Origin: a virus
Lineage: Duplodnaviria > Caudoviricetes
Length of the DNA stretch: 64,000 nt
IMG/VR virus record: IMGVR_UViG_3300022594_000001
Direction: 5' to 3' (one strand)
The notes below the pieces were generated by a model. It was not told the DNA's origin and did not search any database. It saw only the letters and a program-made list of their open reading frames with translations. Below are positions 2 to 21,065 of the stretch, piece after piece. Numbering within the stretch: position 1 is the stretch's first letter; every line of letters starts with the position of its first letter. The position numbers and the translations under genes are program-made.

Positions 2-670
2 GCAGGGCGAGAAGTTGTTGGATCTAAAGCATTGTTTATTACTAAAAAGCGTTATGCCGTACTTGTTTATGACAAAGAAGGTAAGCGTAAAGATAAAGAT
101 GGTAAACCCGGCGACATCAAAGCTATGGGGTTGGACTTAAAACGCTCAGATACTCCTGAATTTATTCAAGACTTCCTAAGCGATGTATTAGAAATGGTAC
201 TAACTGGTGCTACTGAAAAAGAAGTATTAGACTTTATTACTGAATTTAGAATTAAATTTAAGGCTCGCCCTGGTTGGGAAAAGGGTTCACCAAAACGTGC
301 CAATAACATTACTATGTATCAAGGTAAAGAAAAAGATAATGGCAAGACTAACATGCCAGGTCATGTACGTGCAAGTATTAATTGGAACACATTAAAGCGC
401 ATGTTTGATGACAAATACTCAATGAATATTACCGACGGTGCTAAAGTTATTGTATGTAAACTCAAAGCCAACCCATTAGAGTACGCAAGTGTCGCATATC
501 CAGTCGACGAATTGAGGTTACCCCAGTGGTTTAAAGATTTACCTTTTAATCATGCAGAAATGGAAGCTACTATTATCGATAAGAAGCTAGAAAACCTTAT
601 TGGTGTATTGAAGTGGCGTATTGCTGACACTGAAGAAAAGAATACATTTAACAGTTTATTCGAGTTCTAA
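2..670 (+). CDS. Family B DNA polymerase (T4 gp43-like), 5'-truncated by window edge
   Basis: Frame open from base 2 (AGREVVGSKALFITKKRYA...IKAMGLDLKRSDTP): KKRY and GLxxKRSxTP are PolB C-terminal motifs. Confidence 0.9.
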   Translation, partial: AGREVVGSKALFITKKRYAVLVYDKEGKRKDKDGKPGDIKAMGLDLKRSDTPEFIQDFLSDVLEMVLTGATEKEVLDFITEFRIKFKARPGWEKGSPKRANNITMYQGKEKDNGKTNMPGHVRASINWNTLKRMFDDKYSMNITDGAKVIVCKLKANPLEYASVAYPVDELRLPQWFKDLPFNHAEMEATIIDKKLENLIGVLKWRIADTEEKNTFNSLFEF

Positions 671-671
671 T

Positions 672-1454
672 ATGAAAATAATTATAGTAGGGTACGGATT
701 TGTTGGTAAAGCAGTATTCAACGCCCTTAAAACAAAGTACAATGTTGTTATTGTTGATCCGCAGTATACAACAAATGAAATTAAACATCATCCAGATGCT
801 GATGGTATTATCGTCTGTGTCCCTACACCTAGTTTAGACAACGGTGGATGTGATAGTAGTGCTGTTGCAAATGTGTTAGATCAAGTATTGAATGACAATA
901 CTCCTATTCTAATTAAAAGCACAGTAACCCCAGTAGTTACTGAAGCGTTAAACGAGATATATTCAAATTTAACCATTACATACAGTCCAGAATTTTTACG
1001 TGCTAAGACTGCCAACCAAGACTTCCTTGATCAGACACACGTAGTTTTTGGCGGTGTAGATCCAGATGGCTTTTGGCAAGATGTGTTTACACCAGTATTA
1101 ACTAACTGCAAACTATACTTTCACTGTAGTCCAACCGAAGCAGCATTGATAAAGTATTCACGAAACGCCTTTTTGGCAACTAAAGTGTCATTCTTTAATC
1201 AATTGTTTGACTTATGCAATGCGTCAGGTGCAGACTTTGATGTAGTTAGACAGTTAGTAGCACAAGATACTCGCATTGGTGCTGGACATAGCCTAGTACC
1301 AGGGCTAGATGGAGAAAGGGGATTCGGTGGTGCGTGTTTCCCTAAGGATACAGCAGCACTTTTACACTATGCAAATAGCAAAGGCATTAATTTAAGCGTT
1401 ATAGATTCGGCTGTTAATTACAATAAAACGGTAAGAAATTCTATTGACATTTAA
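672..1454 (+). CDS. UDP-glucose/GDP-mannose dehydrogenase family protein, short form (260 aa)
   Basis: ATG at 672; Rossmann IVGYGFVG, VCVPTP, IKSTV, SPEFLR, KYSRNAFLATKVSF, catalytic GFGGACFPKD. Confidence 0.9.
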   Translation: MKIIIVGYGFVGKAVFNALKTKYNVVIVDPQYTTNEIKHHPDADGIIVCVPTPSLDNGGCDSSAVANVLDQVLNDNTPILIKSTVTPVVTEALNEIYSNLTITYSPEFLRAKTANQDFLDQTHVVFGGVDPDGFWQDVFTPVLTNCKLYFHCSPTEAALIKYSRNAFLATKVSFFNQLFDLCNASGADFDVVRQLVAQDTRIGAGHSLVPGLDGERGFGGACFPKDTAALLHYANSKGINLSVIDSAVNYNKTVRNSIDI

Positions 1455-1472
1455 CTAAGATCTAAATAAAAT
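1444..1472 (+). promoter_or_regulatory. sigma70-type promoter overlapping a TAAATA late-type box
   Basis: TTGACA(1444-1449)-17 bp-TAAAAT(1467-1472); TAAATA at 1463-1468; GGAG RBS before ATG 1492. Confidence 0.7.
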
Positions 1473-1491
1473 CAACTATACGGAGAAAATC

Positions 1492-2223
1492 ATGAAAGAC
1501 ATTTTACAAGACATCGTAACACATACACATTCACTAGGAATTATTCCTTTGGTGAAGATTACAAGCACAACAGAAAACACAGACATTGAAGCAATGGCCG
1601 AAGATCGTTCTGTTATTGTTAACGCAACAACTAAAACACCAATTAGTAACTTTGAAGGTGTATTTGGTATGCCTAACTTAAACAAATTAGCTATCCACCT
1701 TGCTTGCCCAGAATACAAAGAAAAGGCAAAAATTACTGTGTCAACTGGACAGCGTAACGGAGAAGAAGTTCCAACAGGACTACACTTCGAAAACGAAACA
1801 GGCGACTTTCAAAACGACTATCGTTTTATGAATACAGAAGTTGTCAATGAAAAATTAAAGACTGTTAAATTCAAAGGTGCTACATGGAACATTGAATTTG
1901 AACCAAGCGCAGCAGCTATTCAACGTTTAAAGTTTCAAGCAAACGCAAATAGTGAAGAAACAGTATTCCAAGTTAGTACAGATAACGATAACTTAATTTT
2001 TAACTTTGGTGATGCAAGTACACACGCAGGTAGCTTTATTTTCGAAGCAAATGTTTCAGGTAAATTAAAACAAACTTGGGCATGGCCAGTTACACAAGTT
2101 ATGAGCATTTTATCATTAACTGGCGATAAGACTGTTCGTATTGCAGATGTAGGCGTAATGCAAATTACAGTTGACAGCGGAATGGCTGAATACAACTACT
2201 TTTTACCAGCACAAACAAAGTAA
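1492..2223 (+). CDS. Probable DNA polymerase sliding clamp (T4 gp45-like)
   Basis: 243 aa, acidic, beta-rich, next to the polymerase; size and position fit gp45; no diagnostic motif. Confidence 0.55.
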   Translation: MKDILQDIVTHTHSLGIIPLVKITSTTENTDIEAMAEDRSVIVNATTKTPISNFEGVFGMPNLNKLAIHLACPEYKEKAKITVSTGQRNGEEVPTGLHFENETGDFQNDYRFMNTEVVNEKLKTVKFKGATWNIEFEPSAAAIQRLKFQANANSEETVFQVSTDNDNLIFNFGDASTHAGSFIFEANVSGKLKQTWAWPVTQVMSILSLTGDKTVRIADVGVMQITVDSGMAEYNYFLPAQTK

Positions 2224-2426
2224 TGGAAACTCACAAAAGAACAGTTGTAAGAATGATCACCTATCGCCTAACAGCGTGGGTGTTCACTATCCTATGGACT
2301 TATTTGTTTACAGGTGACTTAGGAAGTGCTACTGGATTTGCTACAGTACTACATATTCTTTTGAGTATTGACTACTACATACACGAAAGAATCTGGCTAA
2401 AGATTAAATGGGGCAAAATTGAATAA
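2223..2426 (+). CDS. Small membrane protein, DUF2061-like
   Basis: 67 aa, two hydrophobic segments, C-terminal YYIHERIW..IKWG pattern. Confidence 0.65.
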   Translation: METHKRTVVRMITYRLTAWVFTILWTYLFTGDLGSATGFATVLHILLSIDYYIHERIWLKIKWGKIE

Positions 2427-4203
2427 GAATTTAACAGCAACACAAAACGACTACGCAGTATTTTTGCCCGCAACATCTGGATTTTATGCTACCTTTATTG
2501 GTAGACAGCACTATGGTAACTATGTAGATCCTGCACGTATACCAGCGCCATGGGCAAGTGGTATGGACGGGCTTAATTATCTAGAACCAGATAAGGGCGA
2601 GTTTTACTATAGATGGTGTTTGTATTCAGCAGGACATGCTAATTTAGATCTCACTAAACCGGATCAATGCGAAGATATGTTCCGCAAACGAGACCGTTCA
2701 ACATCTTGGGTGTTAGGCGACTCGGGCGGATTCCAGATCGGTAAAGGTGTATGGGAAGGTGAATGGAGAGATCCAACTGGTCCAGAAGTACAGGCTAAAA
2801 TGGCAGAATGTATTGCCAAAGGCATAGAGCTTGTACCCGTTATTGACGCAACCGGTAACCACGCTCTTGATAAGAAAGGCAATCCTAAGTACACTAAAGT
2901 CGATCACGTTAAGCAATATCAAGCAAAACTTGATGCGGCACATAAGAAGCGTACACAGGTGTTAACCTGGATGGACACACTTATGGACTATGGTATGGTC
3001 CTTGATATTCCAGCGTGGGTTGAACGTAGTCCAGCAGGACGTGCAGCAACTGGCATTACTAGCTATGACGAAGCTGTAGACGCAACTAGATACAATAACT
3101 CATACTGGATACAACACCGAACAGGTGCTTGTAAGTTTTTAAACGTTTTACAAGGCGAGAATCACGCACAAGCAGAAGACTGGTATCAAAAGATGAAAGA
3201 CTTTTGCGATCCTAACATCTATGGAGATAAAGCCTTTAACGGCTGGGCCATGGGTGGACAGAATATGTGCGATGTACACTTAGTACTAAAAAGATTAGTT
3301 GCATTACGATTTGACGGACTACTTGAAAAGGGTCAACATGATTGGATGCACTTCTTGGGCACCTCTAAATTAGAGTGGGCTGTTTTATTAACTGATATTC
3401 AACGAGCTGTAAGGAAATACCACAATGAAAACTTTACCATATCTTTTGACTGCGCCTCACCGTTTTTGGCAACAGCAAACGGACAAATCTACATCCAAAC
3501 AGAACTCACCGACAGACAAAAGTGGGTCTACAGAATGGTGCCGTCTGCTGATGACAAAAAGTACGCTCAAGACACAAGACTCTTCAAAGACGCAGTAATT
3601 CAAGATAAAATTTTTAGTAACTTTGATCCAAGTCCGTTAATTGATCAAGTTCGGATTAATGAAATTTGTATTTACGGTGCCGGCACACCTAAACCAGGTG
3701 TTACAAATCCAGACCCAACAAATTTAAATGATTGGTTAATTCCTCCAGACTTAAACAAGTTAGGTAAAGTTAGCAATCGCACAAGTTGGGATTCATTTAG
3801 CTATGCTATACAAATGGGTCATAATGTATGGAGTCATATCAATGCTGTGCAAACAGCTAACCAAGCATACGACAGCAACATTATGCCAGCAATGATGGAT
3901 ACAGTATACGCACATAGAAAGAAAGATTTCTTTTACGACTTGCGTTATTTTAAAGATATGGTTGAAGCTATCTTTGCAGCAACTACTAGAGACGAAGCAA
4001 ACAGACTAGTCGATCTTTATAAAAATTATTTTGATACTATTATTGGTACTAGAGGCAATACTGGTAACAAAATGACTAATGCAAGTAGTCAGTTTAGTGT
4101 ATTATTTGACATCGACGAGGACCCTGCTTCAGACGAACATGGTGATGAATTTACTGACGAAGAAATTCATAAACTTGACGACTTAGAGGATAGTGTAAAA
4201 TGA
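2419..4203 (+). CDS. dpdA: TGT-fold (queuine tRNA-ribosyltransferase-like) protein, probable DNA 7-deazaguanine transglycosylase DpdA
   Basis: TTG start; GDSGGFQ TGT motif, LDIP, LNVLQG, GWAMGG, HFLG, SFDCASP; FolE, QueD-like and QueE genes downstream. Confidence 0.75.
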   Translation: MNKNLTATQNDYAVFLPATSGFYATFIGRQHYGNYVDPARIPAPWASGMDGLNYLEPDKGEFYYRWCLYSAGHANLDLTKPDQCEDMFRKRDRSTSWVLGDSGGFQIGKGVWEGEWRDPTGPEVQAKMAECIAKGIELVPVIDATGNHALDKKGNPKYTKVDHVKQYQAKLDAAHKKRTQVLTWMDTLMDYGMVLDIPAWVERSPAGRAATGITSYDEAVDATRYNNSYWIQHRTGACKFLNVLQGENHAQAEDWYQKMKDFCDPNIYGDKAFNGWAMGGQNMCDVHLVLKRLVALRFDGLLEKGQHDWMHFLGTSKLEWAVLLTDIQRAVRKYHNENFTISFDCASPFLATANGQIYIQTELTDRQKWVYRMVPSADDKKYAQDTRLFKDAVIQDKIFSNFDPSPLIDQVRINEICIYGAGTPKPGVTNPDPTNLNDWLIPPDLNKLGKVSNRTSWDSFSYAIQMGHNVWSHINAVQTANQAYDSNIMPAMMDTVYAHRKKDFFYDLRYFKDMVEAIFAATTRDEANRLVDLYKNYFDTIIGTRGNTGNKMTNASSQFSVLFDIDEDPASDEHGDEFTDEEIHKLDDLEDSVK

Positions 4204-5420
4204 AAAGACGCATCGGAGTCATCGGTGTAGGCAGTGCAGGTATTGTTACACTATGCAAACTGCTAGCATCATTAAGTAATGAATGGGATGTTGTTTCAAT
4301 ATATAATCCAAATATTCCTATTTTAGGAATAGGTGAAAGTACTAATCCTAGTTTTATTCGACTATTAGAACTAGGAACTAGATTTTCTCTCTTAGCAGAT
4401 ACTGATAAACTTGATAGCACTTTAAAATTTGGTACACAGTTTATTAATTGGAGAGATGAGCCGTGGCTTAATCCGTTATTAAGCGGTGGAGTTGCTGTTC
4501 ATTTTAATAACTTTAAATTAAAAGAATTTGCTTTTTCCAGATTTCCAACATTGTGGCCAGAAAAATTTAAAGTTATAGAAGGAAATGTTGATAAAGTTAC
4601 TAACACTAACGATAACGTTACCTTAGAAATCAATGGCAAGGAAGAAGTATTTGATTGGGTTATTGACTGCGGTGGATTTCCTAGCGACGAAGATGAGTAC
4701 ATTAAAAGCACATGTACTATTATGAATCGCTGTTTAGTCTACAGCTTTTTGGAATTTGACCCAATACAATACACTGAGCACATTGCAACACCTAACGGTT
4801 GGATGTTTGGCATTCCACTACAATCAAGAAAAACTTACGGATACTTGTTTAACGATGTAATTACGCCTGTTGAAGAAGCTCAGAAAGATATGGCTAGCAT
4901 ATTAAAAATAGGTGTTGATCAATTAACTACCTCTAACGAGTATCGAGAATATGCATTTAACTCATACTATACATCAAAATTTGTTAACAAACGAGTAATG
5001 AAGAATGGTAATAGAGCATTGTTTTTTGAACCTATTAGTGCAACATCAATTAATCAATACATTGCCACTTGTGATTTAATAATTCAAGTGCTGCTAAATG
5101 GCATGAATGAACCAGAAGCAAATGCGCAGTTTATTCACGAATCACAAATTACTGAAGATATTCTTAATTTTTACTATCACGGTGGTACTACATTTGATAC
5201 ACCATTTTGGCGAGCTGCAAAAGAAAACTCTATCAAACAATTAGACAATAATTTTAGATTTAATTACGTGCTCGATCTTAATCAAAGAGCAATGTCATAC
5301 GGATTGCCATACAACGGACAGGCACATTTATTTTCAAACTATTCACTAGTTGTTATGGATGAGGCATTTGGATATAATTATTTCAAAGGTGCTCCTCGTC
5401 CGTTTAGCCATCCTACTTGA
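4200..5420 (+). CDS. Tryptophan halogenase-like flavin-dependent oxidoreductase
   Basis: GVGSAG FAD motif, IGESTNP, STLKFGTQFINW (conserved Lys), IDCGGF, GWMFGIPL, FFEPISATSI. Confidence 0.8.
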   Translation: MKRRIGVIGVGSAGIVTLCKLLASLSNEWDVVSIYNPNIPILGIGESTNPSFIRLLELGTRFSLLADTDKLDSTLKFGTQFINWRDEPWLNPLLSGGVAVHFNNFKLKEFAFSRFPTLWPEKFKVIEGNVDKVTNTNDNVTLEINGKEEVFDWVIDCGGFPSDEDEYIKSTCTIMNRCLVYSFLEFDPIQYTEHIATPNGWMFGIPLQSRKTYGYLFNDVITPVEEAQKDMASILKIGVDQLTTSNEYREYAFNSYYTSKFVNKRVMKNGNRALFFEPISATSINQYIATCDLIIQVLLNGMNEPEANAQFIHESQITEDILNFYYHGGTTFDTPFWRAAKENSIKQLDNNFRFNYVLDLNQRAMSYGLPYNGQAHLFSNYSLVVMDEAFGYNYFKGAPRPFSHPT

Positions 5421-5445
5421 TTTTACATTACATTTATCGTATAAT
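5417..5445 (+). promoter_or_regulatory. sigma70-type promoter
   Basis: TTGATT(5417-5422)-17 bp-TATAAT(5440-5445) just before ATG 5452. Confidence 0.7.
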
Positions 5446-5451
5446 ACACAC

Positions 5452-5712
5452 ATGACAATGCCAGACGAAAGATTCCGAGCAGTTCTGTACGCAGAAGAAT
5501 TTCTACGTGCAATAGCTGATCCAAACATTACTAAGCGTATTCCAAAAGAAATACGCCAACGTGCTCGCGGAATCCTTCGTCACTATCCTAGTACGTGGGA
5601 TATGCAACAGGCTGCAGAAGCAAGCCCGCATGTGTTTGCCGAACGGATGGAAGATGTAACTAGACTTTTTAAACAATACGAACAATCAAAGGCAAATAAG
5701 AATGAAGCGTGA
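5452..5712 (+). CDS. Small conserved hypothetical protein (BPSL0761-like MTMPDERxRAV start)
   Basis: ATG 5452 follows the promoter; the track start at 5350 overlaps the upstream gene. Confidence 0.6.
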   Translation: MTMPDERFRAVLYAEEFLRAIADPNITKRIPKEIRQRARGILRHYPSTWDMQQAAEASPHVFAERMEDVTRLFKQYEQSKANKNEA

Positions 5713-6217
5713 ACACAAAGGTGCATTTGATCCAGAAGGTGTGCGATTCTTTACAGGTAAAGAAGTAGAGCATACTCCTGCATATGGAATGGATACATTA
5801 TTTGTAATCGGTATCCAACCTACTACAGAAATAACCCCCAGACTACAAAATATAGGCACACATATCTTCTTTGGTGCTGATCATAGCTTTGATCCGAAAA
5901 CACGAGAAGATTGGAAAGAGTGGGAGGCTATGATCGAACACTATTTAAAAATGGGTATACTGTGTAGCCTTGACATTCCATTAAGTGCTGTTGAAGAATT
6001 CAACGAAGGCCCGTTAAATGAATACGATAATTTCATTCCACAAATTAGAGTTCCAATTCCTTATATTAAATTATGGAATTATAATACAATGCTTAAAATA
6101 GATGATAAAGATTTTAAAGCAACTAATCCCGGTGTGTGGACACATAGTCTACATGATTTAAAAGATCGTTCTAAGTTTACTCCTTGGGACAAATATAATA
6201 GCGACAAAACAGTATGA
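5702..6217 (+). CDS. Hypothetical protein within the deazaguanine cluster
   Basis: 171-aa ORF coupled to both neighbours (GKEVEHTPAYGMDTLFV, HIFFGADHSF). Confidence 0.7.
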   Translation: MKREHKGAFDPEGVRFFTGKEVEHTPAYGMDTLFVIGIQPTTEITPRLQNIGTHIFFGADHSFDPKTREDWKEWEAMIEHYLKMGILCSLDIPLSAVEEFNEGPLNEYDNFIPQIRVPIPYIKLWNYNTMLKIDDKDFKATNPGVWTHSLHDLKDRSKFTPWDKYNSDKTV

Positions 6218-6630
6218 TTATCAAGCAAGACATTCGCCCTTTAAAAATGATCTGGGTTAATTTCCAGAAAGAAGGCATTCACAAATATCCAGCGGCACTT
6301 ACAGATCCCGCATTAGCTACAGGAGATGAATACGATGTATCGTTTTTGGGTTATCCTCACCGTCATATTTTCCATTTCAGGGTGTGGATCAGTGTGCAGC
6401 ACAACGACAGGGACATCGAGTTCATCCAATTCAAACGTTGGCTCACTTCGTTGTATCAATCAAGTGCCGACAATAACAGTAGTCAAGATTCCGTTTTAAA
6501 TCTTGACTATAAGAGTTGTGAAATGATATCAGACGATTTGTATGATGTCATTAGCAAGAAGTATCCAAATCGCGAAGTTTGGATTGAGGTTTCCGAAGAT
6601 TCGGAAAATGGTTCATTTATCAAATATTAA
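6214..6630 (+). CDS. QueD-like T-fold protein (6-pyruvoyl-tetrahydropterin / CPH4 synthase family)
   Basis: 138 aa; His at EGIH, HRHIFH (HxH metal site), SCEM, C-terminal VSEDSEN; pathway context. Confidence 0.6.
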   Translation: MIIKQDIRPLKMIWVNFQKEGIHKYPAALTDPALATGDEYDVSFLGYPHRHIFHFRVWISVQHNDRDIEFIQFKRWLTSLYQSSADNNSSQDSVLNLDYKSCEMISDDLYDVISKKYPNREVWIEVSEDSENGSFIKY

Positions 6631-6644
6631 AATAAGAGGCTACT

Positions 6645-6911
6645 ATGGCTAAAAATTATAACGACATCGTTTATTCTGAAACTAAAAACGGTAAGGATTC
6701 CGCTGACATCTTTGATGTACTAGAAGGATATCTAGATTACTGTCGTTTTGAACTCCTTGAGTTCGACCCATCACATTACAGTGTAAGGGGTAATCATCAT
6801 CCACAATATCGTGGTTACATAAACAGTAAGAGACCACGCAAGCCATATTTAGGAAACAAGCCTAGATATAACAACAATAACAGACGCCATGAGCAGAATT
6901 TTTCTAATTGA
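6645..6911 (+). CDS. Hypothetical protein, basic C-terminus
   Basis: 88-aa ORF with GAGG RBS. Confidence 0.6.
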   Translation: MAKNYNDIVYSETKNGKDSADIFDVLEGYLDYCRFELLEFDPSHYSVRGNHHPQYRGYINSKRPRKPYLGNKPRYNNNNRRHEQNFSN

Positions 6912-7959
6912 TTTAGAAGCCGTTGAAACAAGGTACACGGGTCAGTGGAAGACCCATGTACCTGAACTCTTACGAAAGGCAGGACACAATGTTCAAATTA
7001 TCTCTGGGCCTACGGATATTCCTTCAGCCACTACTCCTGGTGCTTTTCTTAATTTTGGTGGCACCAATATATACAAGTCTAGCCAAGTTGAGCAAATGGG
7101 CCGTTTATTTTGTAGCGGATCCGTTTATCCCGGCGACCACTTTATTTTTACTGACGCTTGGCATCCGGGCATTATAAACCTAAAGTACATGAGTGAGCTA
7201 CTAGGTATTCCAGTAGTTACACATGGCTTATGGCATGCTGGTAGTTATGATCCTCAAGACTTCCTTGGACGCTTAGTCGGAGATAAGCCTTGGGTCAGAC
7301 ATGCAGAACAAAGTTTCTATCATGCGTTCGATCATAACTACTTTGCTACACAATTCCACATTGAAATGTTTGGTAAGAATCTGTTAGGCAAAGCAGGATA
7401 TGTTCCAGAAGCTAATGTAACAGGTAAAGTTGTTCGCACAGGTTGGCCTATGGAATATATGCAAGATACCTTGCTAGAATATAAGGGTATGGAAAAACGT
7501 AACCTTATTTTATTCCCACATCGAATTGCTCCAGAAAAACAAGTTGATATTTTTAGAGACTTGAAAGAACGCTTACCACAATACGAGTTTGTAGTATGCC
7601 AGGATCAACAGCTAACAAAAAATGAATATCATAATTTGTTAGGCGAATCAAAATTAGTGTTTAGTGCAAACTTACAAGAAACATTAGGTATTAGTTGGTA
7701 CGAAGGAGCAGTAGTAGATGCTATTCCTATGGTACCGGATCGCCTAAGCTATAGCGAAATGGCAATGGATGAATTCAAGTATCCAAGCAACTGGACCGAA
7801 AGCTATAACCATTATGTAGCAAATAGGAACGAAGTCTGCGATCGTATCGTAGAGTACATGGATAATTACACTAAGTATATTCCACTTGTACACAAACAAA
7901 TGGAGGTGCTACGTGACAACTTCTTCAGCGCAAGAAACATTCTCAATAACATTAACTGA
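6889..7959 (+). CDS. GT-B fold glycosyltransferase (family 4-like)
   Basis: ILFPHRIAPEKQ and QETLGISWYE (E-x7-E) plus AIPMVP are GT4 C-terminal motifs. Confidence 0.85.
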   Translation: MSRIFLIDLEAVETRYTGQWKTHVPELLRKAGHNVQIISGPTDIPSATTPGAFLNFGGTNIYKSSQVEQMGRLFCSGSVYPGDHFIFTDAWHPGIINLKYMSELLGIPVVTHGLWHAGSYDPQDFLGRLVGDKPWVRHAEQSFYHAFDHNYFATQFHIEMFGKNLLGKAGYVPEANVTGKVVRTGWPMEYMQDTLLEYKGMEKRNLILFPHRIAPEKQVDIFRDLKERLPQYEFVVCQDQQLTKNEYHNLLGESKLVFSANLQETLGISWYEGAVVDAIPMVPDRLSYSEMAMDEFKYPSNWTESYNHYVANRNEVCDRIVEYMDNYTKYIPLVHKQMEVLRDNFFSARNILNNIN

Positions 7960-8296
7960 CGAACAATTAGCAGAATTATCGAACAGTACTATAACATTAA
8001 ACGGGTCAAACTGTTATGGTACTCTTACATATCCTTGTTATACATCATCAGTAAGTTCTGTTAGTTATACTACTTCAACAACAGGTTCGACATTTTGTAT
8101 ACCAAACATTAACATCAGCAATGTTGATGTTTGGGGTAGTACTGAATGGGTCAATTCATTTCCTGCTTGGGGAAGGATCGAAGATATGTGTAAAGAGTAC
8201 CCCGGACTTAAACTTGCCTTTGAAAAATTTAAGAATACTTATAATTTAGTAAAAGACGATTTTGATTTGCCTCCGGAAAAAAGGATCAAACCATAA
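7913..8296 (+). CDS. Hypothetical protein with Ser/Thr-rich N-terminal half
   Basis: GTG at 7913 preceded by GGAGG; helical C-terminus CKEYPGLKLAFEKF. Confidence 0.6.
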   Translation: MTTSSAQETFSITLTDEQLAELSNSTITLNGSNCYGTLTYPCYTSSVSSVSYTTSTTGSTFCIPNINISNVDVWGSTEWVNSFPAWGRIEDMCKEYPGLKLAFEKFKNTYNLVKDDFDLPPEKRIKP

Positions 8297-8694
8297 TGGC
8301 TGTTATAAACTTGCCCAATAATACTAATAATACCATACCAGCCGGTGCATACTTAACTTCTGGCGGAACAAGCTACTCAACTGCATGGACTCAGCCAAGT
8401 CAAAATTTTGTAAGTAACCATGGACAGCCAATTATGACTATTCCTAACGAAGGGCAAAAAGTTGTTTTGGAAGAAAAAGCTACGCTCGAAGTTAAAGGCA
8501 ATGTTGTAATAAACGGTCAAGATTTAGAAGAACGGTTAAAGACAATCGAGCAAGTATTGCAAATTCCTACAAGAGATGTTATAATGGAAAATAAGCATCC
8601 AAAACTTGCAAAATTGTACAAACAATATATGCATGAATTGGAAAAATATCGAACATGGGAACGTATTAAAGGAGAAGATAATGGAACTACATGA
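8296..8694 (+). CDS. Hypothetical protein
   Basis: 132-aa ORF, TAATG coupling. Confidence 0.65.
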   Translation: MAVINLPNNTNNTIPAGAYLTSGGTSYSTAWTQPSQNFVSNHGQPIMTIPNEGQKVVLEEKATLEVKGNVVINGQDLEERLKTIEQVLQIPTRDVIMENKHPKLAKLYKQYMHELEKYRTWERIKGEDNGTT

Positions 8695-8911
8695 ATCAGT
8701 TAGAGATAGCTACAAAGAAATGGTTATCAAAGAATCCGAAGGCTTTCGCCTAACACTGAAGAAGCACGAAGTATTAAGTCCTAAAGGCTTGTTTAGTATC
8801 GATATGCTTCAAGAAAGTTTGAAAGACGGTGAGGTTGTTAGCTCGCAAGAATATAACTTCTTTATGACTAAAGAAGAATGTCAAGCACTAGCATATGGCC
8901 TAACTGCATGA
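8681..8911 (+). CDS. Hypothetical protein
   Basis: ATG 8681 with GGAG RBS; 76 aa. Confidence 0.6.
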   Translation: MELHESVRDSYKEMVIKESEGFRLTLKKHEVLSPKGLFSIDMLQESLKDGEVVSSQEYNFFMTKEECQALAYGLTA

Positions 8912-9435
8912 AGAAAGTCTATTATTCTTGGCAACAAGTACAAGGTGCCTGTTTAGATATTGCTAGACAATTACGCAAAGATAAATGGGCACCTGACTAT
9001 ATCGTTGGCATTACCAGAGGAGGAGCAGTTCCTGCCATACTGTTAAGTCAATATTTAGATGTACCAATGCGCCCACTACAAGTAAGTTTACGAGATGGTG
9101 GAGAATGTGTTAGCGATTGCGGAATGGCTGAAGATGCGTTTGGACATCTCATTTACGATCCAATGTGCTCCGGCGACGGCAAGAAAAAGATCCTAGTCGT
9201 CGATGATATTAACGATCAAGGATCAACTATTGCTTGGATTAAACAAGACTGGCAAGCAAGTTGTCATCCAAACGACGAACGTTGGCTTAACGAAATATGG
9301 GGACGAAATGTCCGCTTTGCTACACTTACCGACAATATTGCTAGCAAAGAAACTGTTGACTACTCAGTGTGGGAAGTTAACAAGGCAGAAGAAGATTGTT
9401 GGTTAGTTTATCCTTGGGAGGATTTTTGGAAATGA
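8908..9435 (+). CDS. Type I phosphoribosyltransferase (xanthine/guanine PRTase-like)
   Basis: IVGITRGG loop and PRPP-binding motif ILVVDDINDQGSTI; ATGA overlap at 8908. Confidence 0.88.
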   Translation: MKKVYYSWQQVQGACLDIARQLRKDKWAPDYIVGITRGGAVPAILLSQYLDVPMRPLQVSLRDGGECVSDCGMAEDAFGHLIYDPMCSGDGKKKILVVDDINDQGSTIAWIKQDWQASCHPNDERWLNEIWGRNVRFATLTDNIASKETVDYSVWEVNKAEEDCWLVYPWEDFWK

Positions 9436-9626
9436 TTAACGCACTATTTAAACTAATTTTAGGCATTACACTAATTGTATTTGTAATTGTTGTAGGACCA
9501 TTAGCAGGCATCTGGTCTCTTAATACACTATTCCCAGTATTGCATATTCCATACACATGGGAAACTTGGTTGGCATTTTTGTTACTCTTTGGTAGTGCAA
9601 CTGGATTGAGATTCGGGAAGAAATAA
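9432..9626 (+). CDS. Small membrane protein
   Basis: 64 aa, almost entirely hydrophobic. Confidence 0.6.
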   Translation: MINALFKLILGITLIVFVIVVGPLAGIWSLNTLFPVLHIPYTWETWLAFLLLFGSATGLRFGKK

Positions 9627-9808
9627 TGCCAGAACTAACTGTAGCAGAACTCGAAGCAAAGATTAAAAAAGCTAAACAAGATTCCGAATCTCTCAGAGCA
9701 ACAGGGGAAAGTAGTCGAAAGATGGAAGTGCTTTCCGAGTATATTGAAATGCTAGAAGAAGACTTGTACAATGCACGTAAACAAGAAAATTCACAAGAAA
9801 AAAGATAA
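9626..9808 (+). CDS. Small coiled-coil hypothetical protein
   Basis: 60-aa ORF, TAATG coupling. Confidence 0.55.
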   Translation: MPELTVAELEAKIKKAKQDSESLRATGESSRKMEVLSEYIEMLEEDLYNARKQENSQEKR

Positions 9809-9821
9809 AAGAATAAAAATA

Positions 9822-10031
9822 ATGTCTGATGGATTTACTCATATGGTGCAAGTGCCTTGGCATAGTCAATCAGGTAAATGGTGGAACGAAGCATGTGCTG
9901 ACGTTATAGAAGTATTTGGATTACCAGGTGATCGTTTTACAAGTTATGCCAAAATGGAATCTATGGAGTTTTATTTTAAATCAAACAGGGATGCAGAATT
10001 ATGCAAGATACTTCTAAGCGACAAGATTTAG
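9822..10031 (+). CDS. Hypothetical protein
   Basis: ATG 9822 after the previous stop; WWNEACADVIEVFGLPG. Confidence 0.55.
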   Translation: MSDGFTHMVQVPWHSQSGKWWNEACADVIEVFGLPGDRFTSYAKMESMEFYFKSNRDAELCKILLSDKI

Positions 10032-10228
10032 ATTTTTACTTAGTTTTAGTGTTAGGGTTTTTAGGAATGGTGTTTGCCATTTACTGGAACTATACACACC
10101 CACATGTAACAGTTAGATATGATTGCTCGATTGCAGAGATTAGTCCAGACTATCCAGTTCAAGTTAAGGAAGGATGTCGCAAACTTCGAGCAAAATATTT
10201 TGAAGAAAATTTGCAAAAACCTAAATAA
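10001..10228 (+). CDS. Small membrane-anchored protein
   Basis: Hydrophobic segment FYLVLVLGFLGMVFAIYW; two Cys in C-terminal part. Confidence 0.55.
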   Translation: MQDTSKRQDLDFYLVLVLGFLGMVFAIYWNYTHPHVTVRYDCSIAEISPDYPVQVKEGCRKLRAKYFEENLQKPK

Positions 10229-10239
10229 AAGTATAAAAT
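10211..10239 (+). promoter_or_regulatory. sigma70-type promoter with a TAAATA box in the spacer
   Basis: TTGCAA(10211-10216)-17 bp-TAAAAT(10234-10239); TAAATA 10222-10227; AGGAG RBS before folE. Confidence 0.55.
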
Positions 10240-10258
10240 TAAAGCATTAGGAGATATA

Positions 10259-10954
10259 ATGTCAGAAAAAAACTTATCACAAGTAATACGCGAACAAATG
10301 AAACGACAAGGCAAACGTTTCTGGGCTGGCGACAATATTAGCGATTATGTCGATGAAGAACAAAAAGAAGTATTAATCGAAGAAGCTACTGTAGCTTTTG
10401 AAAAGGTACTAGATACACTTTTGATTGATAGAGAAACAGATCCAAATTCGCACGGTACTGCAAAGCGCCTAGCTAAAATGTATTTTAATGAAATTATGTC
10501 AGGGCGTTATGATCCTGCACCAGACGCAACAGCGTTTCCAAATGATAGTGAGGATAGATATGAAGGCATGTTGGTTGTTCGTAGTGAGTTGCGTAGTATG
10601 TGTAGTCATCATCACCAACCCGTTACTGGCGTTGCTTATATTGGCATTATTGCCGCTCAAAAACTTATTGGCTTATCTAAGTACACCCGAATCGCACAGT
10701 GGTGTGCTAGAAGAGGTACACTCCAGGAGGAACTTTGTAATGATATTGCTAGGGAAATCGCAAAAGCAACAGAAGCTAGAGACATAGGTGTTTATGTACA
10801 AGCTGTACACGGGTGCTGTGAGAATCGCGGAATTATGGCTAAAAGTAGTTTAACACAAACTACTGTACTTAAAGGTGCGTTTAAAGAAGATGCAGGTACA
10901 AAGAAAGAATTCTTTGACAACATTAAAATGCAACAGGAGTACGCCTCAAAATGA
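10259..10954 (+). CDS. folE: GTP cyclohydrolase I
   Basis: GTAKRLAKMY, SMCSHHHQP, IGLSKYTRI, LQEEL, HGCCENRGI. Confidence 0.95.
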   Translation: MSEKNLSQVIREQMKRQGKRFWAGDNISDYVDEEQKEVLIEEATVAFEKVLDTLLIDRETDPNSHGTAKRLAKMYFNEIMSGRYDPAPDATAFPNDSEDRYEGMLVVRSELRSMCSHHHQPVTGVAYIGIIAAQKLIGLSKYTRIAQWCARRGTLQEELCNDIAREIAKATEARDIGVYVQAVHGCCENRGIMAKSSLTQTTVLKGAFKEDAGTKKEFFDNIKMQQEYASK

Positions 10955-11172
10955 CAACAGCTAAAGACTTAACAGATCAATTAATTAATCGTGCTAAAAA
11001 CTTACAAGAATTTATAGTTGAACGCGAGTTCAACGAAATTCCACTTAATGGTGTGGTTAAGTTTGATGTACAACATAGTAAAGGACACCCAGCTCGAATC
11101 TTTGTTCATGCCCTTACACAACAAGAAGCTGAAGAAATGGTTAACGAGTGGTTTGAAGAAGCAAATGACTAA
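10951..11172 (+). CDS. Hypothetical protein
   Basis: 73-aa ORF, ATGA overlap with folE. Confidence 0.6.
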   Translation: MTTAKDLTDQLINRAKNLQEFIVEREFNEIPLNGVVKFDVQHSKGHPARIFVHALTQQEAEEMVNEWFEEAND

Positions 11173-11563
11173 TCCACAAGTTCCAGCCGAAGGTATCCTA
11201 ATTAGAAAGGATTATGGCGATGCCAAAAGTTACACTGTACCGTGTGAATGCTGTGGCTCCAATTGCGAGCACAATGTCTGGGTCGAAGCAGACGAAACAG
11301 GAGTCACAGTCACAACATACACCCAACAAAAAACAAAATGGTGGGAACTTAACAGATGGCAAGTCATTTGGCGATTGCTTACAACAGGCTATGTCGAATA
11401 TGAAGCGTCCATTATAATGTCCAAACAACAAGCTCTTAACTACTCAGCCGTGTTACAATCATCTGTTAACGATATAGAGCAGTTTGAAAAAGATCGTAAA
11501 TGGAAACAAGATTTAGTTAATAAAATTGCTACTAGATTAGCCAATGAAGGTGATTGTGAATGA
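11165..11563 (+). CDS. Hypothetical protein with Cys/His cluster (CECCGSNCEH)
   Basis: ATG 11165 overlapping previous stop; possible Zn site. Confidence 0.6.
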   Translation: MTNPQVPAEGILIRKDYGDAKSYTVPCECCGSNCEHNVWVEADETGVTVTTYTQQKTKWWELNRWQVIWRLLTTGYVEYEASIIMSKQQALNYSAVLQSSVNDIEQFEKDRKWKQDLVNKIATRLANEGDCE

Positions 11564-12411
11564 GTAAAATTAAAATTGCAGAACTATTTTATAGTGTACA
11601 AGGTGAAGGACGTTACATGGGTGTACCGTCTGTTTTCTTACGTACATTTGGATGTAACTTTAAATGTGCCGGCTTCGGTATGCCTCGAGGCGAACTAAGC
11701 ATAGAAGCAGAGGACATTGCACAAGTTGCACACTTATACAACAAATATGAAGAACTTCCTTTGGTTACTACGGGGTGTGACAGTTATGCTAGTTGGCATC
11801 CTAGTTTTAAAGAACTTAGTCCAATGCTCACTTCAGACGCAATCGCCGATAGAATCTCGGAAATTATTCCGTTCGGCGAATGGAAAGATGAACACTTGGT
11901 AATCACAGGCGGTGAGCCATTGCTAGGTTGGCAACGTGCTTATCCAGACTTGCTAGATCATCCTAAGATGAAAGGCTTGAAAGAAATTACCTTTGAAACA
12001 AACGGTACTCAAAAACTTACACAAGACTTTAAAAATTATTTAGGTGTATGGAAAGGTCTTCCAAGACAAAAACGTGAAATTACATTTAGTGTAAGTGCCA
12101 AGTTGCCGTGCAGTGGCGAAAAGTGGGAAGAAGCTATTCAACCAGACATTGTATGCGAATACGAAGAAGTTGGAACTGCATACTTAAAATTTGTTATTTC
12201 TACAGAACAAGATTTTGAGGATGCTCAACGTGCAGTTGCTGAGTATCGTAAAGCAGGATTTACAGGACACGTTTATCTAATGCCGGTTGGTGGTGTTGAA
12301 AGTGTTTATGCATTAAACAATAAAGCAGTAGCTATTATGGCAATGAAAGCAGGTTTACGGTATAGTGATAGATTGCAAGTGCCATTATTTAAAAATGAAT
12401 GGGGAACCTAA
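11560..12411 (+). CDS. queE: 7-carboxy-7-deazaguanine synthase, radical SAM
   Basis: IAELFYSVQGEG, VFLRTFGCNFKC, GCDS, VITGGEP, FETNGT, SVSAK, LKFV, YLMP, YSDRLQ. Confidence 0.9.
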   Translation: MSKIKIAELFYSVQGEGRYMGVPSVFLRTFGCNFKCAGFGMPRGELSIEAEDIAQVAHLYNKYEELPLVTTGCDSYASWHPSFKELSPMLTSDAIADRISEIIPFGEWKDEHLVITGGEPLLGWQRAYPDLLDHPKMKGLKEITFETNGTQKLTQDFKNYLGVWKGLPRQKREITFSVSAKLPCSGEKWEEAIQPDIVCEYEEVGTAYLKFVISTEQDFEDAQRAVAEYRKAGFTGHVYLMPVGGVESVYALNNKAVAIMAMKAGLRYSDRLQVPLFKNEWGT

Positions 12412-20053: not shown

Positions 20054-20370
20054 CATCAACTGGGAAAACCCTTCCCAAAGAAGTCATTGAGTGTTGGCCA
20101 GAAGTGTTCGGAGAGGTAAAACTAAATGTAATGCCTCTCAAGTACCTACACGCTGTTGAAATCACTTTCAAAGATGGTAAAGTTTGGGAAATAAAAGTAA
20201 CAACAAAAACAAAAAATAGCGACTGGGATACATTTGAAAAATCACTATCAGAACTATGTAAAGCATATGAAGCAAGAATTAAAAGCATAGACTTTAAATT
20301 AGATACTGAACGTGTTAAAAAAGATATCAAACGTGGAACTGAACAATTTTTAAAAAAGAAAAAACTCTAA
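20050..20370 (+). CDS. Hypothetical protein
   Basis: 106 aa, ATGA overlap. Confidence 0.65.
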   Translation: MTSTGKTLPKEVIECWPEVFGEVKLNVMPLKYLHAVEITFKDGKVWEIKVTTKTKNSDWDTFEKSLSELCKAYEARIKSIDFKLDTERVKKDIKRGTEQFLKKKKL

Positions 20371-21065
20371 TGAATGTTAAACTAATATCATCAAGTAAAC
20401 CAAGTAGAGAAATGAGTAGTGAAGGTATGTACGATGTGCAAGAGCTTATTGCTTTTTGTGCCCGTGTTAGTAATCCAGCTAATCAGTTTAATACAGAAAC
20501 TAGTGAAAAACTAATTCGTTACTTAATCAAACATCAGCATTGGTCACCGTTGGAAATGGTAAGTGCATGTTTAGAAATTACAACTACTAGAGATATTGCT
20601 CGTCAAATTCTCCGTCACCGTAGTTTTAGTTTCCAAGAATTTAGTCAGCGTTATGCTGATCCAACAGCAGAACTAGATGATGCATTTGTATTACGTGAAG
20701 CACGATTCCAAGATACTAAGAATAGACAAAACAGTGTAGAACTAGATATGTCTGACGAAGCTCAGAAGCAGCTTGCTTACGAATGGGAACGTGCTCAAAA
20801 ACGTGTACTATTTGCAGTTAAGCAAGAATATGTGTGGGCTATTAAAAATGGAATTGCCAAAGAACAAGCCCGAGCAGTGTTGCCAGAGGGTCTTACTGTA
20901 AGTCGTTTGTATATGAACGGAACACTGCGTAGTTGGATTCACTTTATTGAATTACGCAGTTCTAATGGTACACAAAAAGAGCACATGGAGGTTGCCCGTG
21001 CATGTGCTCAAGTTATTGCAGAAATATTTCCTATGGCTGGTGAATTTGTTCAAACTGATTCTTAA
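20370..21065 (+). CDS. thyX: FAD-dependent thymidylate synthase
   Basis: HQHWSPLE, RQILRHRSFSFQEFSQRY, ARAVLP, QKEH. Confidence 0.95.
   Translation: MNVKLISSSKPSREMSSEGMYDVQELIAFCARVSNPANQFNTETSEKLIRYLIKHQHWSPLEMVSACLEITTTRDIARQILRHRSFSFQEFSQRYADPTAELDDAFVLREARFQDTKNRQNSVELDMSDEAQKQLAYEWERAQKRVLFAVKQEYVWAIKNGIAKEQARAVLPEGLTVSRLYMNGTLRSWIHFIELRSSNGTQKEHMEVARACAQVIAEIFPMAGEFVQTDS

Follow-up and report, generated by a model that had tools for sequence, protein, structure and literature searches.

What does a glycosyltransferase do among the 7-deazaguanine genes of an uncultured giant tailed phage? The window, a stretch of 64,000 nucleotides from IMG/VR record IMGVR_UViG_3300022594_000001, carries such a gene. 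The initial annotation proposed that its product puts a sugar on the C7 substituent of a deazaguanine in DNA.

P0001 is a GT4-like glycosyltransferase with a GT-B fold

The gene runs from ATG to TAA (6889..7959, + strand) and encodes P0001, a GT-B, GT4-like (retaining-type) glycosyltransferase of 356 residues. It is a real, conserved gene, because the open reading frame is complete and metagenomes yielded over 8000 close relatives of it, as well as 1129 clusters at 50% identity. P0001 itself had no match in Pfam, NCBIfam, PHROGs, PADLOC or PDB sequences, and a Pfam search at E values up to 10 gave nothing beyond a chance match to Rhodopsin_N. PF00534 was matched by 43 of 66 relatives (best E 4.5e-9) and PF13439 by 4 of 66. 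As P0001 has no family match of its own, the term GT4-like rests on the fold, the motifs and the Pfam matches of its relatives. The initial annotation had called a complete gene of this type here, and all three lines of evidence agreed with it.

The 3D structure of P0001 was modeled using AlphaFold 2 (pLDDT 95.4, pTM 0.92). The model has the two Rossmann-like domains of the GT-B fold, and Foldseek matched it to GT-B structures with a probability of 1.0. In VIA comparisons, the model aligned with sucrose-phosphate synthase 6kih (Z 26.3, rmsd 3.2, 316 residues aligned), BshA 6d9t (Z 25.2, rmsd 2.9, 301 residues aligned), MshA (Z 24.5) and the pterin glucosyltransferase BGluT (Z 21.4). Judged by this model, the nearest structures are retaining GT4 enzymes with Z scores of 24–26. 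The family profile of P0001 also matched the GT4 structure 8xsg (E 2.8e-5).

Conservation was analyzed in the 66 relatives. The E-x7-E donor motif, which reads QETLGISWYEG in the window and aligns with the same motif of 8xsg, contains E264, at least 90% conserved, and E272, which is invariant. The basic pair R212 and K217 (R-x4-K, sequence HRIAPEKQ) is also at least 90% conserved. We read the 8xsg/6eji alignment as placing this pair at the position of GRLxxxKG, so it would be the counterpart of that donor-diphosphate-binding motif. H116-A-G118 is conserved as well. In the N-terminal half, the conserved residues are mainly aromatic and acidic (E10, Y16, W20, D89, W91, D121, D124, E140 and D148). 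The protein is acidic, with a pI of 5.9 and a family median of 5.7.

The gene lies in a QueC-less, DpdL-type module

The genes around P0001 were assigned from motifs and family matches; those described here are on the + strand, from 621 to 12411. Upstream of P0001 is a T-fold gene (6214..6630) that the initial annotation had called QueD-like and placed directly before the glycosyltransferase gene. Its product contains LxxxHRHxF (6346-6372) and no CxxxHGH. LxxxHRHxF is the DpdL motif that replaces the CxxxHGH of QueD (PMC10516641). Because it has the former motif and not the latter, we assigned the gene as DpdL as defined by Cui et al. 2023, a proposed decarboxylase of 7-carboxy-7-deazaguanine (CDG). 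It gave a weak homologue match to phiST CGPG_00067. The neighbour was thus correctly seen to lie upstream, but it is DpdL, and a small basic ORF of 88 aa (6645..6911) lies between the two genes and overlaps the glycosyltransferase start by 23 nt. This ORF had no family match and is kept in 116 of 138 close loci.

A long DNA transglycosylase of the TGT superfamily (2419..4203, 594 aa) is DpdA-like and contains DSGGFQ. It is 32% identical to a protein located just upstream of the glycosyltransferase gene in the PA5oct group. In the PDB, the only chains matched by a profile of such long DpdA-like proteins (A3) were those of tRNA-guanine transglycosylases (best E 0.0055). D101, D196 and D344 are invariant in all eight A3 sequences and probably correspond to the catalytic and substrate-binding Asp residues of TGT.

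GTP cyclohydrolase I (FolE; 10259..10954, PF01227, E 5.6e-39) and 7-carboxy-7-deazaguanine synthase (QueE; 11560..12411, NCBIfam QueE models, E 2e-15) are encoded downstream. No QueC motif SGGxDS was found in the window. A sibling IMG/VR record, G001 (94% complete), was used to stand in for the genome-wide gene content of the window's phage. In G001, the QueC model gave only partial matches inside ORFs of 390–409 aa, none a true QueC, and QueD is encoded elsewhere in the genome, as it is in other phages with this glycosyltransferase. By sequence, the module is a QueC-less, DpdL-type 7-deazaguanine set with FolE, QueE, DpdL, the long DpdA-like protein and a QueD encoded elsewhere.

Other neighbours are less easily placed. 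P0273 (5702..6217, 171 aa) has no predicted function. It is present in 111 of 113 close loci and is 29% identical to an ORF upstream of the ACP17 dpdA. Its AlphaFold 2 model (pLDDT 76) gave no clear fold match (best Z 6.6). Matches to QueE chains were weak (Z 5.4–5.9 over 117–127 residues), profile comparison with the window's QueE detected no similarity, and a search of the ESM Atlas gave sub-threshold leads only. A purine-type phosphoribosyltransferase gene (8878..9435, PF00156, E 3e-12) is found in 94 of 118 close loci and has a weak homologue in the PA5oct-group cluster. A flavin-dependent halogenase-like gene (4200..5420, PF04820, E 3e-30) was rejected as a core module step; just 3 of 99 close loci have it, and it is an accessory passenger.

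A gene at 621..1454 encodes a UDP-glucose/GDP-mannose dehydrogenase-like protein (PF00984, PF03721) with an intact GGACFPKD and without the C-terminal UDP-binding domain. It occurs in 36 of the 94 close loci that could be assessed for it. Sugar-nucleotide dehydrogenase genes adjoin the glycosyltransferase gene repeatedly across loci, and in locus L163 a full-length homologue overlaps its stop codon. The protein at 621..1454 is a possible accessory supplier of the sugar donor.

Linkage with DpdA and DpdL is conserved in phages and bacteria

The close set comprised 138 IMG/VR loci, and each gene was counted among the loci assessable for that gene. The glycosyltransferase gene was linked to DpdA in 85/85 loci, DpdL in 117/117, FolE in 99/104 and QueE in 85/87. 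Homologues with only 23–50% identity were still linked to DpdL and/or DpdA in Phosso, the PA5oct group, ACP17, BUDD/X1 and BCSR5, where the gene orders differ. DpdL homologues adjoin the glycosyltransferase gene in Phosso, the PA5oct group, ACP17, BUDD and BCSR5; in ACP17, it lies between dpdA and dpdL. The IMG/VR clade L098-L100 has the same pairing. Part of the synteny among phages may reflect common ancestry of T4-like replication modules.

In genome assemblies, DpdA and/or DpdL were encoded within 6 kb of the glycosyltransferase gene in all 33 well-flanked loci, and DpdA in 30 of them. About 30 of the 33 loci sit on contigs of bacterial chromosomes; the others resemble phage contigs that were placed in MAG bins. 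Strains of Methylobacterium, Magnetospirillum and Pelagibacterium are among the carriers of the island. The loci have at least four architectures. A gene for a YhhQ/Vut_1-like transporter (a weak match) is directly upstream of the glycosyltransferase gene in 20 of 32 bacterial loci. In Roseobacter-type loci, the reading frames of the glycosyltransferase and DpdA overlap. Distances between glycosyltransferases and between DpdA proteins co-vary (r 0.80, Mantel p 0.001, 40 pairs). The linkage thus survives gene-order rearrangements in both phages and bacteria, indicating that the glycosyltransferase belongs to a 7-deazaguanine DNA-modification module, as the initial annotation had supposed.

Alignment-based scans returned only the closest clade, and scans of viral contigs with three distant members as single queries gave no match. 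Vibrio phage 2.275.O has a long DpdA in a QueC/QueF (preQ1-type) cluster. The 370-aa ORF beside it was considered as a homologue of the glycosyltransferase and rejected, as the two are not homologous, indicating that long DpdA proteins also occur without this glycosyltransferase.

Possible acceptors of the glycosyltransferase

The best reading, to which we give about an even chance, is that P0001 adds a sugar to a base derived from 7-deazaguanine and that this base finally becomes part of the DNA. We infer catalytic activity, acceptor, sugar, attachment site and order of steps as follows. FolE, QueD and QueE would convert GTP to 7-carboxy-7-deazaguanine, and DpdL would reshape this compound, probably by decarboxylation to 7-deazaguanine. 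The long DpdA-like transglycosylase would exchange guanine in phage DNA for the deazapurine. P0001, as an active retaining-type GT-B enzyme, would transfer a sugar from a nucleotide sugar to the deazaguanine-derived base, which could still be free at that point or already part of the DNA. A UDP-hexose or UDP-hexuronate is a possible donor, since UDP-sugar dehydrogenase genes recur as neighbours. The sugar may be attached to the CDG carboxylate, to N2 as in huimycin, through C-glycosylation or to some other side chain. The glycosylated 7-deazapurine would give packaged DNA a second layer of protection, both from restriction enzymes and from defences that recognise plain deazaguanine.

Two published observations are in favour of this pathway. 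PA5oct DNA resists five restriction enzymes with G in their sites, and a modified G of unidentified structure is suspected (PMC12191111). ACP17 dpdA and dpdL produced no dDG when expressed together in E. coli; according to the authors, other enzymes may be needed (PMC10516641). In our literature search, no report of glycosylated deazaguanine in DNA was found.

Several findings count against the proposed pathway. DpdL systems without this glycosyltransferase are present in phiST, RHph_I1_18 and Ahp1; such systems function without it, indicating that the glycosyltransferase is an add-on. If DpdL is a CDG decarboxylase, as the dDG of phiST suggests, C7 would have no group to glycosylate. The C7 substituent named as acceptor in the initial annotation therefore gained no specific support: the module is without QueC and with DpdL, whose proposed activity would leave C7-H (dDG). 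The acidity of P0001 is unlike the usual DNA-binding surface and counts against a DNA acceptor, and the enzymes nearest to it in structure all have small molecules or lipids as substrates.

These last features would better fit an enzyme that glycosylates a free deazapurine or pterin intermediate, with a glycoside that never enters DNA. The product could be a soluble compound, a stored or detoxified form, or a short-lived activated intermediate. An acidic protein, with nearest folds among small-molecule GT4 enzymes including BGluT, is consistent with this, and the aromatic and acidic N-terminal residues would suit a pocket for a 2-amino-4-oxo heterocycle. The YhhQ-like base-transporter gene of the bacterial loci also points to a free base, and HuiG of the huimycin pathway is a precedent. 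However, the invariant partner DpdA inserts its base into nucleic acid, a soluble deazapurine glycoside has no obvious use to phages, and BGluT is no closer to P0001 than dozens of other GT4 structures. We regard a free-base product as unlikely.

Another macromolecule, such as DpdA or another protein, queuosine tRNA of host or phage, or the DNA backbone or an abasic intermediate, is a less probable acceptor still. QTMAN is a GT4 enzyme that acts on 7-deazaguanine in tRNA (queuosine, in animals), which favours tRNA. TGT-family enzymes can also modify proteins, and the overlapping frames in Roseobacter-type loci are compatible with a physical complex of glycosyltransferase and DpdA. However, the N-terminal domain of QTMAN, which we take to be PF12038, was not matched by P0001 in Pfam at E values up to 10. 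The window gives no pointer to a tRNA role for the glycosyltransferase, and the resistance of PA5oct to restriction enzymes speaks for DNA.

Most GT4 enzymes typically build glycans, and P0001 might act on the host envelope, virion proteins or other cell-surface acceptors. We consider this very unlikely, because the linkage with DpdA and DpdL holds across phages and bacteria despite shuffled gene order, and the gene is in the replication/nucleotide module rather than among structural or lysis genes. This location agrees with the distance from structural genes noted in the initial annotation.

The weakest possibility, that P0001 glucosylates hydroxymethyl-pyrimidines like T4 AGT and BGT and lies among deazaguanine genes by coincidence, has the GT-B fold, the replication-module location and a ThyA-family gene in some phages with the glycosyltransferase (Phosso, PAC2, PhiXhv-15 and G002) in its favour, but it was rejected as scarcely credible, because genome-wide searches found no ThyA family (PF00303) in G001, ACP17, BUDD or BCSR5, all of which have the glycosyltransferase. 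The absence of ThyA-type hydroxymethylases from these four genomes indicates that the acceptor is not generally hmC or hmU. The ThyA-family matches that do exist score 258–419 bits against the ThyA model, no hydroxymethylase is encoded near the glycosyltransferase–DpdA pair in bacterial islands, and ThyX, noted in the initial annotation and located at 20370-21065 in the window, implies ordinary dTMP synthesis. A gene block on the opposite strand begins at about 21 kb.

Significance

More broadly, and at slightly below even confidence, we propose that glycosylated 7-deazapurine is present in the DNA of at least seven phage lineages (including the cultured PA5oct-like phages, ACP17, Phosso, BUDD/X1 and BCSR5) and of mobile islands in many Alphaproteobacteria. 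It would be made by a pair of DpdA and GT4-like glycosyltransferase, and the heterocycle would come from DpdL or from an imported base. To our knowledge, natural DNA glycosylation has so far been found on pyrimidines only (glucosyl- and arabinosyl-hmC, base J and the SP15 base), and the natural 7-deazaguanine modifications of DNA that we know of all have small groups at C7. Both chemistries would be joined by a dedicated glycosyltransferase tied to DpdA in phages and bacterial islands. If the proposal is true, natural DNA would have its first known purine analogue with a sugar, a purine counterpart of glucosyl-hmC and base J. It could explain the suspected modified G of PA5oct and the lack of dDG from ACP17 dpdA and dpdL in E. 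coli. A new modified base would bear on sequencing, on restriction and defence studies and on enzymology. The hypothesis is directly testable, as some of the phages and bacteria with the glycosyltransferase are already in culture.

Comparison with known systems

The closest module is the dDG system of Cellulophaga phage phiST, with FolE, QueD, QueE, DpdL and DpdA3 (Cui, Hutinet et al. 2023, PMC10516641). Both systems have FolE, QueE, a QueD (elsewhere in the genome in the case of the window), DpdL with LxxxHRHxF and a TGT-family transglycosylase, both lack QueC, and both adjoin replication genes. The differences are that phiST has no homologue of P0001 (tblastn, E<=1e-5) and that its DpdA3 is 259 aa long, whereas the transglycosylase of the window is 594 aa. 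The product of phiST is plain dDG, while the window's module has an extra glycosyltransferase.

The T4 alpha- and beta-glucosyltransferases (GT72 and GT63), which act on hmC in DNA, resemble P0001 in the GT-B fold and in being encoded in the replication module. They likely follow the same logic of a second layer upon a first DNA modification. The likeness to AGT and BGT raised in the initial annotation extends no further than this fold in the matches listed, the nearest structures being BshA, MshA and sucrose-phosphate synthase. Neither AGT nor BGT was among the Foldseek or VIA matches listed for P0001, and a cyanophage 'DNA alpha-GT' appeared only at rank 49 in BFVD. P0001 has no detectable sequence relation to the T4 enzymes and no hydroxymethylase partner, it is acidic, and its acceptor would be a purine analogue.

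The GT4 enzymes BshA, MshA, PimA and PglA share with P0001 the two-domain GT-B fold (Z 21–25), E-x7-E and a His-x-Gly N-terminal loop. In the R-x4-K motif, P0001 has HRIAPEKQ and this family has GRLxxxKG. P0001 departs from them in several ways. E10...R15-Y16 takes the place of the N-terminal glycine loop, and a distinct set of aromatic and acidic residues is conserved in the acceptor domain. Its genomic partners are DNA-modification genes, and the protein itself is below Pfam detection.

HuiG, a GT4-type enzyme likened to P0001 by description only, adds GlcNAc to a preQ0-derived 7-deazapurine base. As proposed for P0001, its acceptor is a 7-deazaguanine-derived base made via FolE, QueD and QueE. 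However, HuiG belongs to a gene cluster for a secondary metabolite, of a kind recognised by its lack of dpdA, and makes a free small molecule.

In the Salmonella Dpd system, DpdA/B insert preQ0 and DpdC turns it into ADG in DNA. Like it, the bacterial glycosyltransferase islands combine a DpdA-family enzyme with a tailoring enzyme. The islands had no PADLOC matches to DpdB, DpdC or DpdD-K. Their tailoring enzyme is instead a glycosyltransferase, and its partners are DpdL, the YhhQ-like transporter and a MASE1 histidine kinase with a LuxR-type regulator.

Putative glycosyltransferase gene and its predicted product

The putative glycosyltransferase (GT) gene at 6889-7959 (+) is a complete ORF of 356 aa. 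Its first 23 nt are shared with the 3' end of an 88-aa ORF (6645-6911). A strong Shine-Dalgarno sequence was not found upstream of its start. A complete HMMER search of 1.8 billion cluster representatives yielded 1129 related clusters. Metagenomes contained more than 8000 relatives with about 75-88% identity, on contigs up to 345 kb. Judged from sequence, the ORF is clearly a genuine gene.

The GT sequence itself had no match in Pfam, NCBIfam, PHROG, PADLOC, or PDB sequences. Pfam Glycos_transf_1 was matched by 43 of 66 relatives, and the family profile matched the GT4 structure 8xsg (E 2.8e-5) across the conserved donor-motif region. The 3D structure was modeled using AlphaFold2 with an alignment of 66 diverse relatives, giving a two-domain GT-B fold (pLDDT 95.4, pTM 0.92). 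Foldseek matched the model to GT4 enzymes at probability 1.0. The best VIA-align match was sucrose-phosphate synthase (Z 26.3, rmsd 3.2, 316 aligned), followed by BshA (Z 25.2), MshA (Z 24.5), and PglA, PimA, and glycogen synthase (Z 21-23).

Conserved columns included E264 and E272 of an E-x7-E motif (QETLGISWYEG in the window), H116-A-G118, and R212 and K217 within HRIAPEKQ, which we read as the equivalent of the GRLxxxKG of the GT4 family. With these motifs and the GT4 profile and Pfam matches, the donor site looks intact and the predicted enzyme is probably active. The initial annotation had called the product GT4-like, and fold, motifs, and profile matches all bear this out. The N-terminal (acceptor) half is idiosyncratic: other residues take the place of the usual glycine loop, and an aromatic/acidic set is conserved (E10, R15, Y16, W20, K63, Q66, D89, W91, D121, D124, E140, and D148).

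Deazaguanine module in the window

The upstream part of the window contains the 3' end of a family-B DNA polymerase gene, a UDP-glucose/GDP-mannose dehydrogenase-like gene (621-1454), and a sliding clamp gene. The 594-aa product of 2419-4203 carries the TGT motif DSGGFQ. When it was aligned with phage counterparts (eight sequences), PDB matches were tRNA-guanine transglycosylases only, and D101, D196, and D344 were invariant; these are taken as the TGT catalytic and substrate-binding Asp residues. From these features, the product is assigned as a long DpdA-like transglycosylase.

The start of a flavin-dependent halogenase-like gene (4200-5420) overlaps the dpdA stop. Of 99 related loci, just 3 had this gene, which marks it as an accessory passenger in the window. 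P0273, a conserved 171-aa protein (5702-6217), is encoded between this gene and DpdL. Its model (pLDDT 76) had no clear fold match; the longest, weak alignments were to QueE chains (Z 5.4-5.9) and had no sequence-profile support. A P0273 homologue is located upstream of the dpdA of phage ACP17.

The gene at 6214-6630, initially called QueD-like, carries LxxxHRHxF, the signature of DpdL, a proposed 7-carboxy-7-deazaguanine (CDG) decarboxylase (Cui et al. 2023, PMC10516641), and is reassigned as DpdL. Downstream of the GT are small ORFs, then genes for a purine-type phosphoribosyltransferase, FolE, and QueE. The DpdA-like, DpdL, FolE, and QueE genes confirm a deazaguanine operon. No QueC motif was found in the 64-kb window, and canonical QueD is encoded elsewhere in the sibling genome G001. 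ThyX is encoded at 20370-21065. A single 4530-aa ORF occupies 32395-45987 (-), and ORFs of 1162 and 799 aa come next on that strand; these presumably encode virion or injected proteins of this giant phage.

Linkage of the GT to DpdA and DpdL

The close clade comprised 138 IMG/VR loci with GTs 74-85% identical. Among assessable loci, the GT was accompanied by DpdA in 85/85, DpdL in 117/117, P0273 in 111/113, FolE in 99/104, QueE in 85/87, the phosphoribosyltransferase in 94/118, and the dehydrogenase in 36/94. In isolated phages whose GTs were only 23-50% identical, the GT was still beside DpdL and/or DpdA, in differing orders: DpdL-GT in Phosso, DpdA-GT-DpdL in the PA5oct group and ACP17, GT-DpdA-DpdL in BUDD/X1, and GT-DpdA in BCSR5. 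A 197-kb IMG/VR phage (GT 31% identical) had DpdL-GT-x-DpdA.

All 33 well-flanked loci from genome assemblies had DpdA and/or DpdL within 6 kb of the GT (DpdA in 30). About 30 came from contigs of bacterial chromosomes; the remaining few resemble phage contigs that were binned into MAGs. Alphaproteobacteria had compact islands of GT and DpdA, with or without DpdL (L167-L195, e.g. L192:9410-12566 and L185:9977-13088), in at least four architectures: DpdA-YhhQ-GT, DpdA-YhhQ-DpdL-GT, HK-GT-DpdL-DpdA-QueD, and HK-YhhQ-GT-DpdA. In 20 of 32 loci, the gene directly 5' of the GT was that of a Vut_1/YhhQ-like transporter, a weak match with Pfam scores just under the gathering cut-off. Also nearby were genes for a MASE1 histidine kinase together with a LuxR-type regulator, and integrase-family genes, including a small one in the alphaproteobacterial islands. 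Some loci added a C5 methylase, a HEPN protein, or a CoiA-like nuclease. Neighbours of these kinds are seen in mobile or defence islands. PADLOC models matched none of the alphaproteobacterial island components.

GT and DpdA distances co-varied (r 0.80, Mantel p 0.001), a figure to which shared ancestry contributes. Because the linkage outlasts so much rearrangement, it is strong evidence for a shared function of the GT with DpdA/DpdL.

DpdL was also found without the GT, in phiST, RHph_I1_18, Ahp1, and others. PhiST DNA is proven to contain the 7-deazaguanine nucleoside dDG (Cui et al. 2023, PMC10516641). The long DpdA profile had no match in RHph_I1_18 or Ahp1. The former, a Rhizobium phage, has a macro-domain (Appr-1-p processing) gene next after DpdL (L156:9408-10232). 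Vibrio phage 2.275.O has a long DpdA-like gene with QueF, Vut_1 transporter, QueC, and Gat-like genes (L210:6905-12336) and no GT; a 370-aa ORF adjoining its DpdA is unrelated to the GT family. Since DpdL and long DpdA each occur without it, the GT adds an optional layer to DpdA systems and is not required for dDG synthesis.

Proposed acceptor and sugar

The reading with the best support, given an even chance, is that the GT glycosylates a 7-deazaguanine-derived base destined for DNA. Glycosylation might follow DpdA action, on the base in DNA, or precede it, on the free base, which the unusually long DpdA would then insert. The acidic protein (pI 5.9; family median 5.7) and its small-molecule nearest structural neighbours leave room for a free-base acceptor. 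A base or pterin glycoside remaining in solution is unlikely. Action on another macromolecule is less probable still, and no link of the GT to structural or envelope functions was found. The remaining alternatives rank lower again. Hydroxymethyl-pyrimidines cannot be the general acceptor, because ThyA-family genes, the only route to hmC or hmU known to us, were absent from four GT-bearing genomes (G001, 94% complete; ACP17; BUDD; BCSR5).

For the glycosylated deazapurine in DNA, the initial annotation had proposed the C7 substituent as acceptor. The predicted loss of the C7 carboxyl through DpdL speaks against this site unless the acceptor is CDG itself or DpdL acts differently here. The earlier observation stands with small corrections, and its interpretation only in part. 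For N2-glycosylation, huimycin (HuiG) offers a natural-product precedent, but an N2-linked sugar would fall in the minor groove. For C-glycosylation at the electron-rich C7, we know of no GT4 precedent.

A hint that the donor is a hexuronate or something related comes from the repeated occurrence of UDP-glucose/GDP-mannose dehydrogenase genes. A full-length one overlaps the GT stop codon at L163:11074-12318; in the window copy and its relatives (257-277 aa), the catalytic GGACFPKD is intact, but the C-terminal UDP-binding domain is consistently missing. In PhiXhv-type Xanthomonas phages, which encode long DpdA and FolE elsewhere, a distant GT subgroup adjoins GlmS and an LmbE/BshB-type deacetylase (PhiXhv-15, L086:5669-8903), suggesting a GlcNAc-then-deacetylate route for this subgroup.

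Comparison with known systems

DpdL and DpdA3 have been described, and ACP17 dpdA and dpdL together produced no dDG in E. coli (Cui et al. 2023, PMC10516641). The ACP17 GT lies exactly between these two genes. Literature searches found no report of glycosylated deazaguanine in DNA. The GT-deazaguanine module occurs widely, and cultured phages and bacteria allow it to be tested directly. It would join two kinds of modification already known, deazaguanine DNA modification and DNA glycosylation. The IMG/VR contig L098 carries two GT-family paralogues (1584-2639 and 10001-11092; mutual identity 29%). One precedes FolE; the other follows DpdL and has D-x7-E instead of E-x7-E. They form a pair that recalls the paired alpha- and beta-glucosyltransferases of T4.
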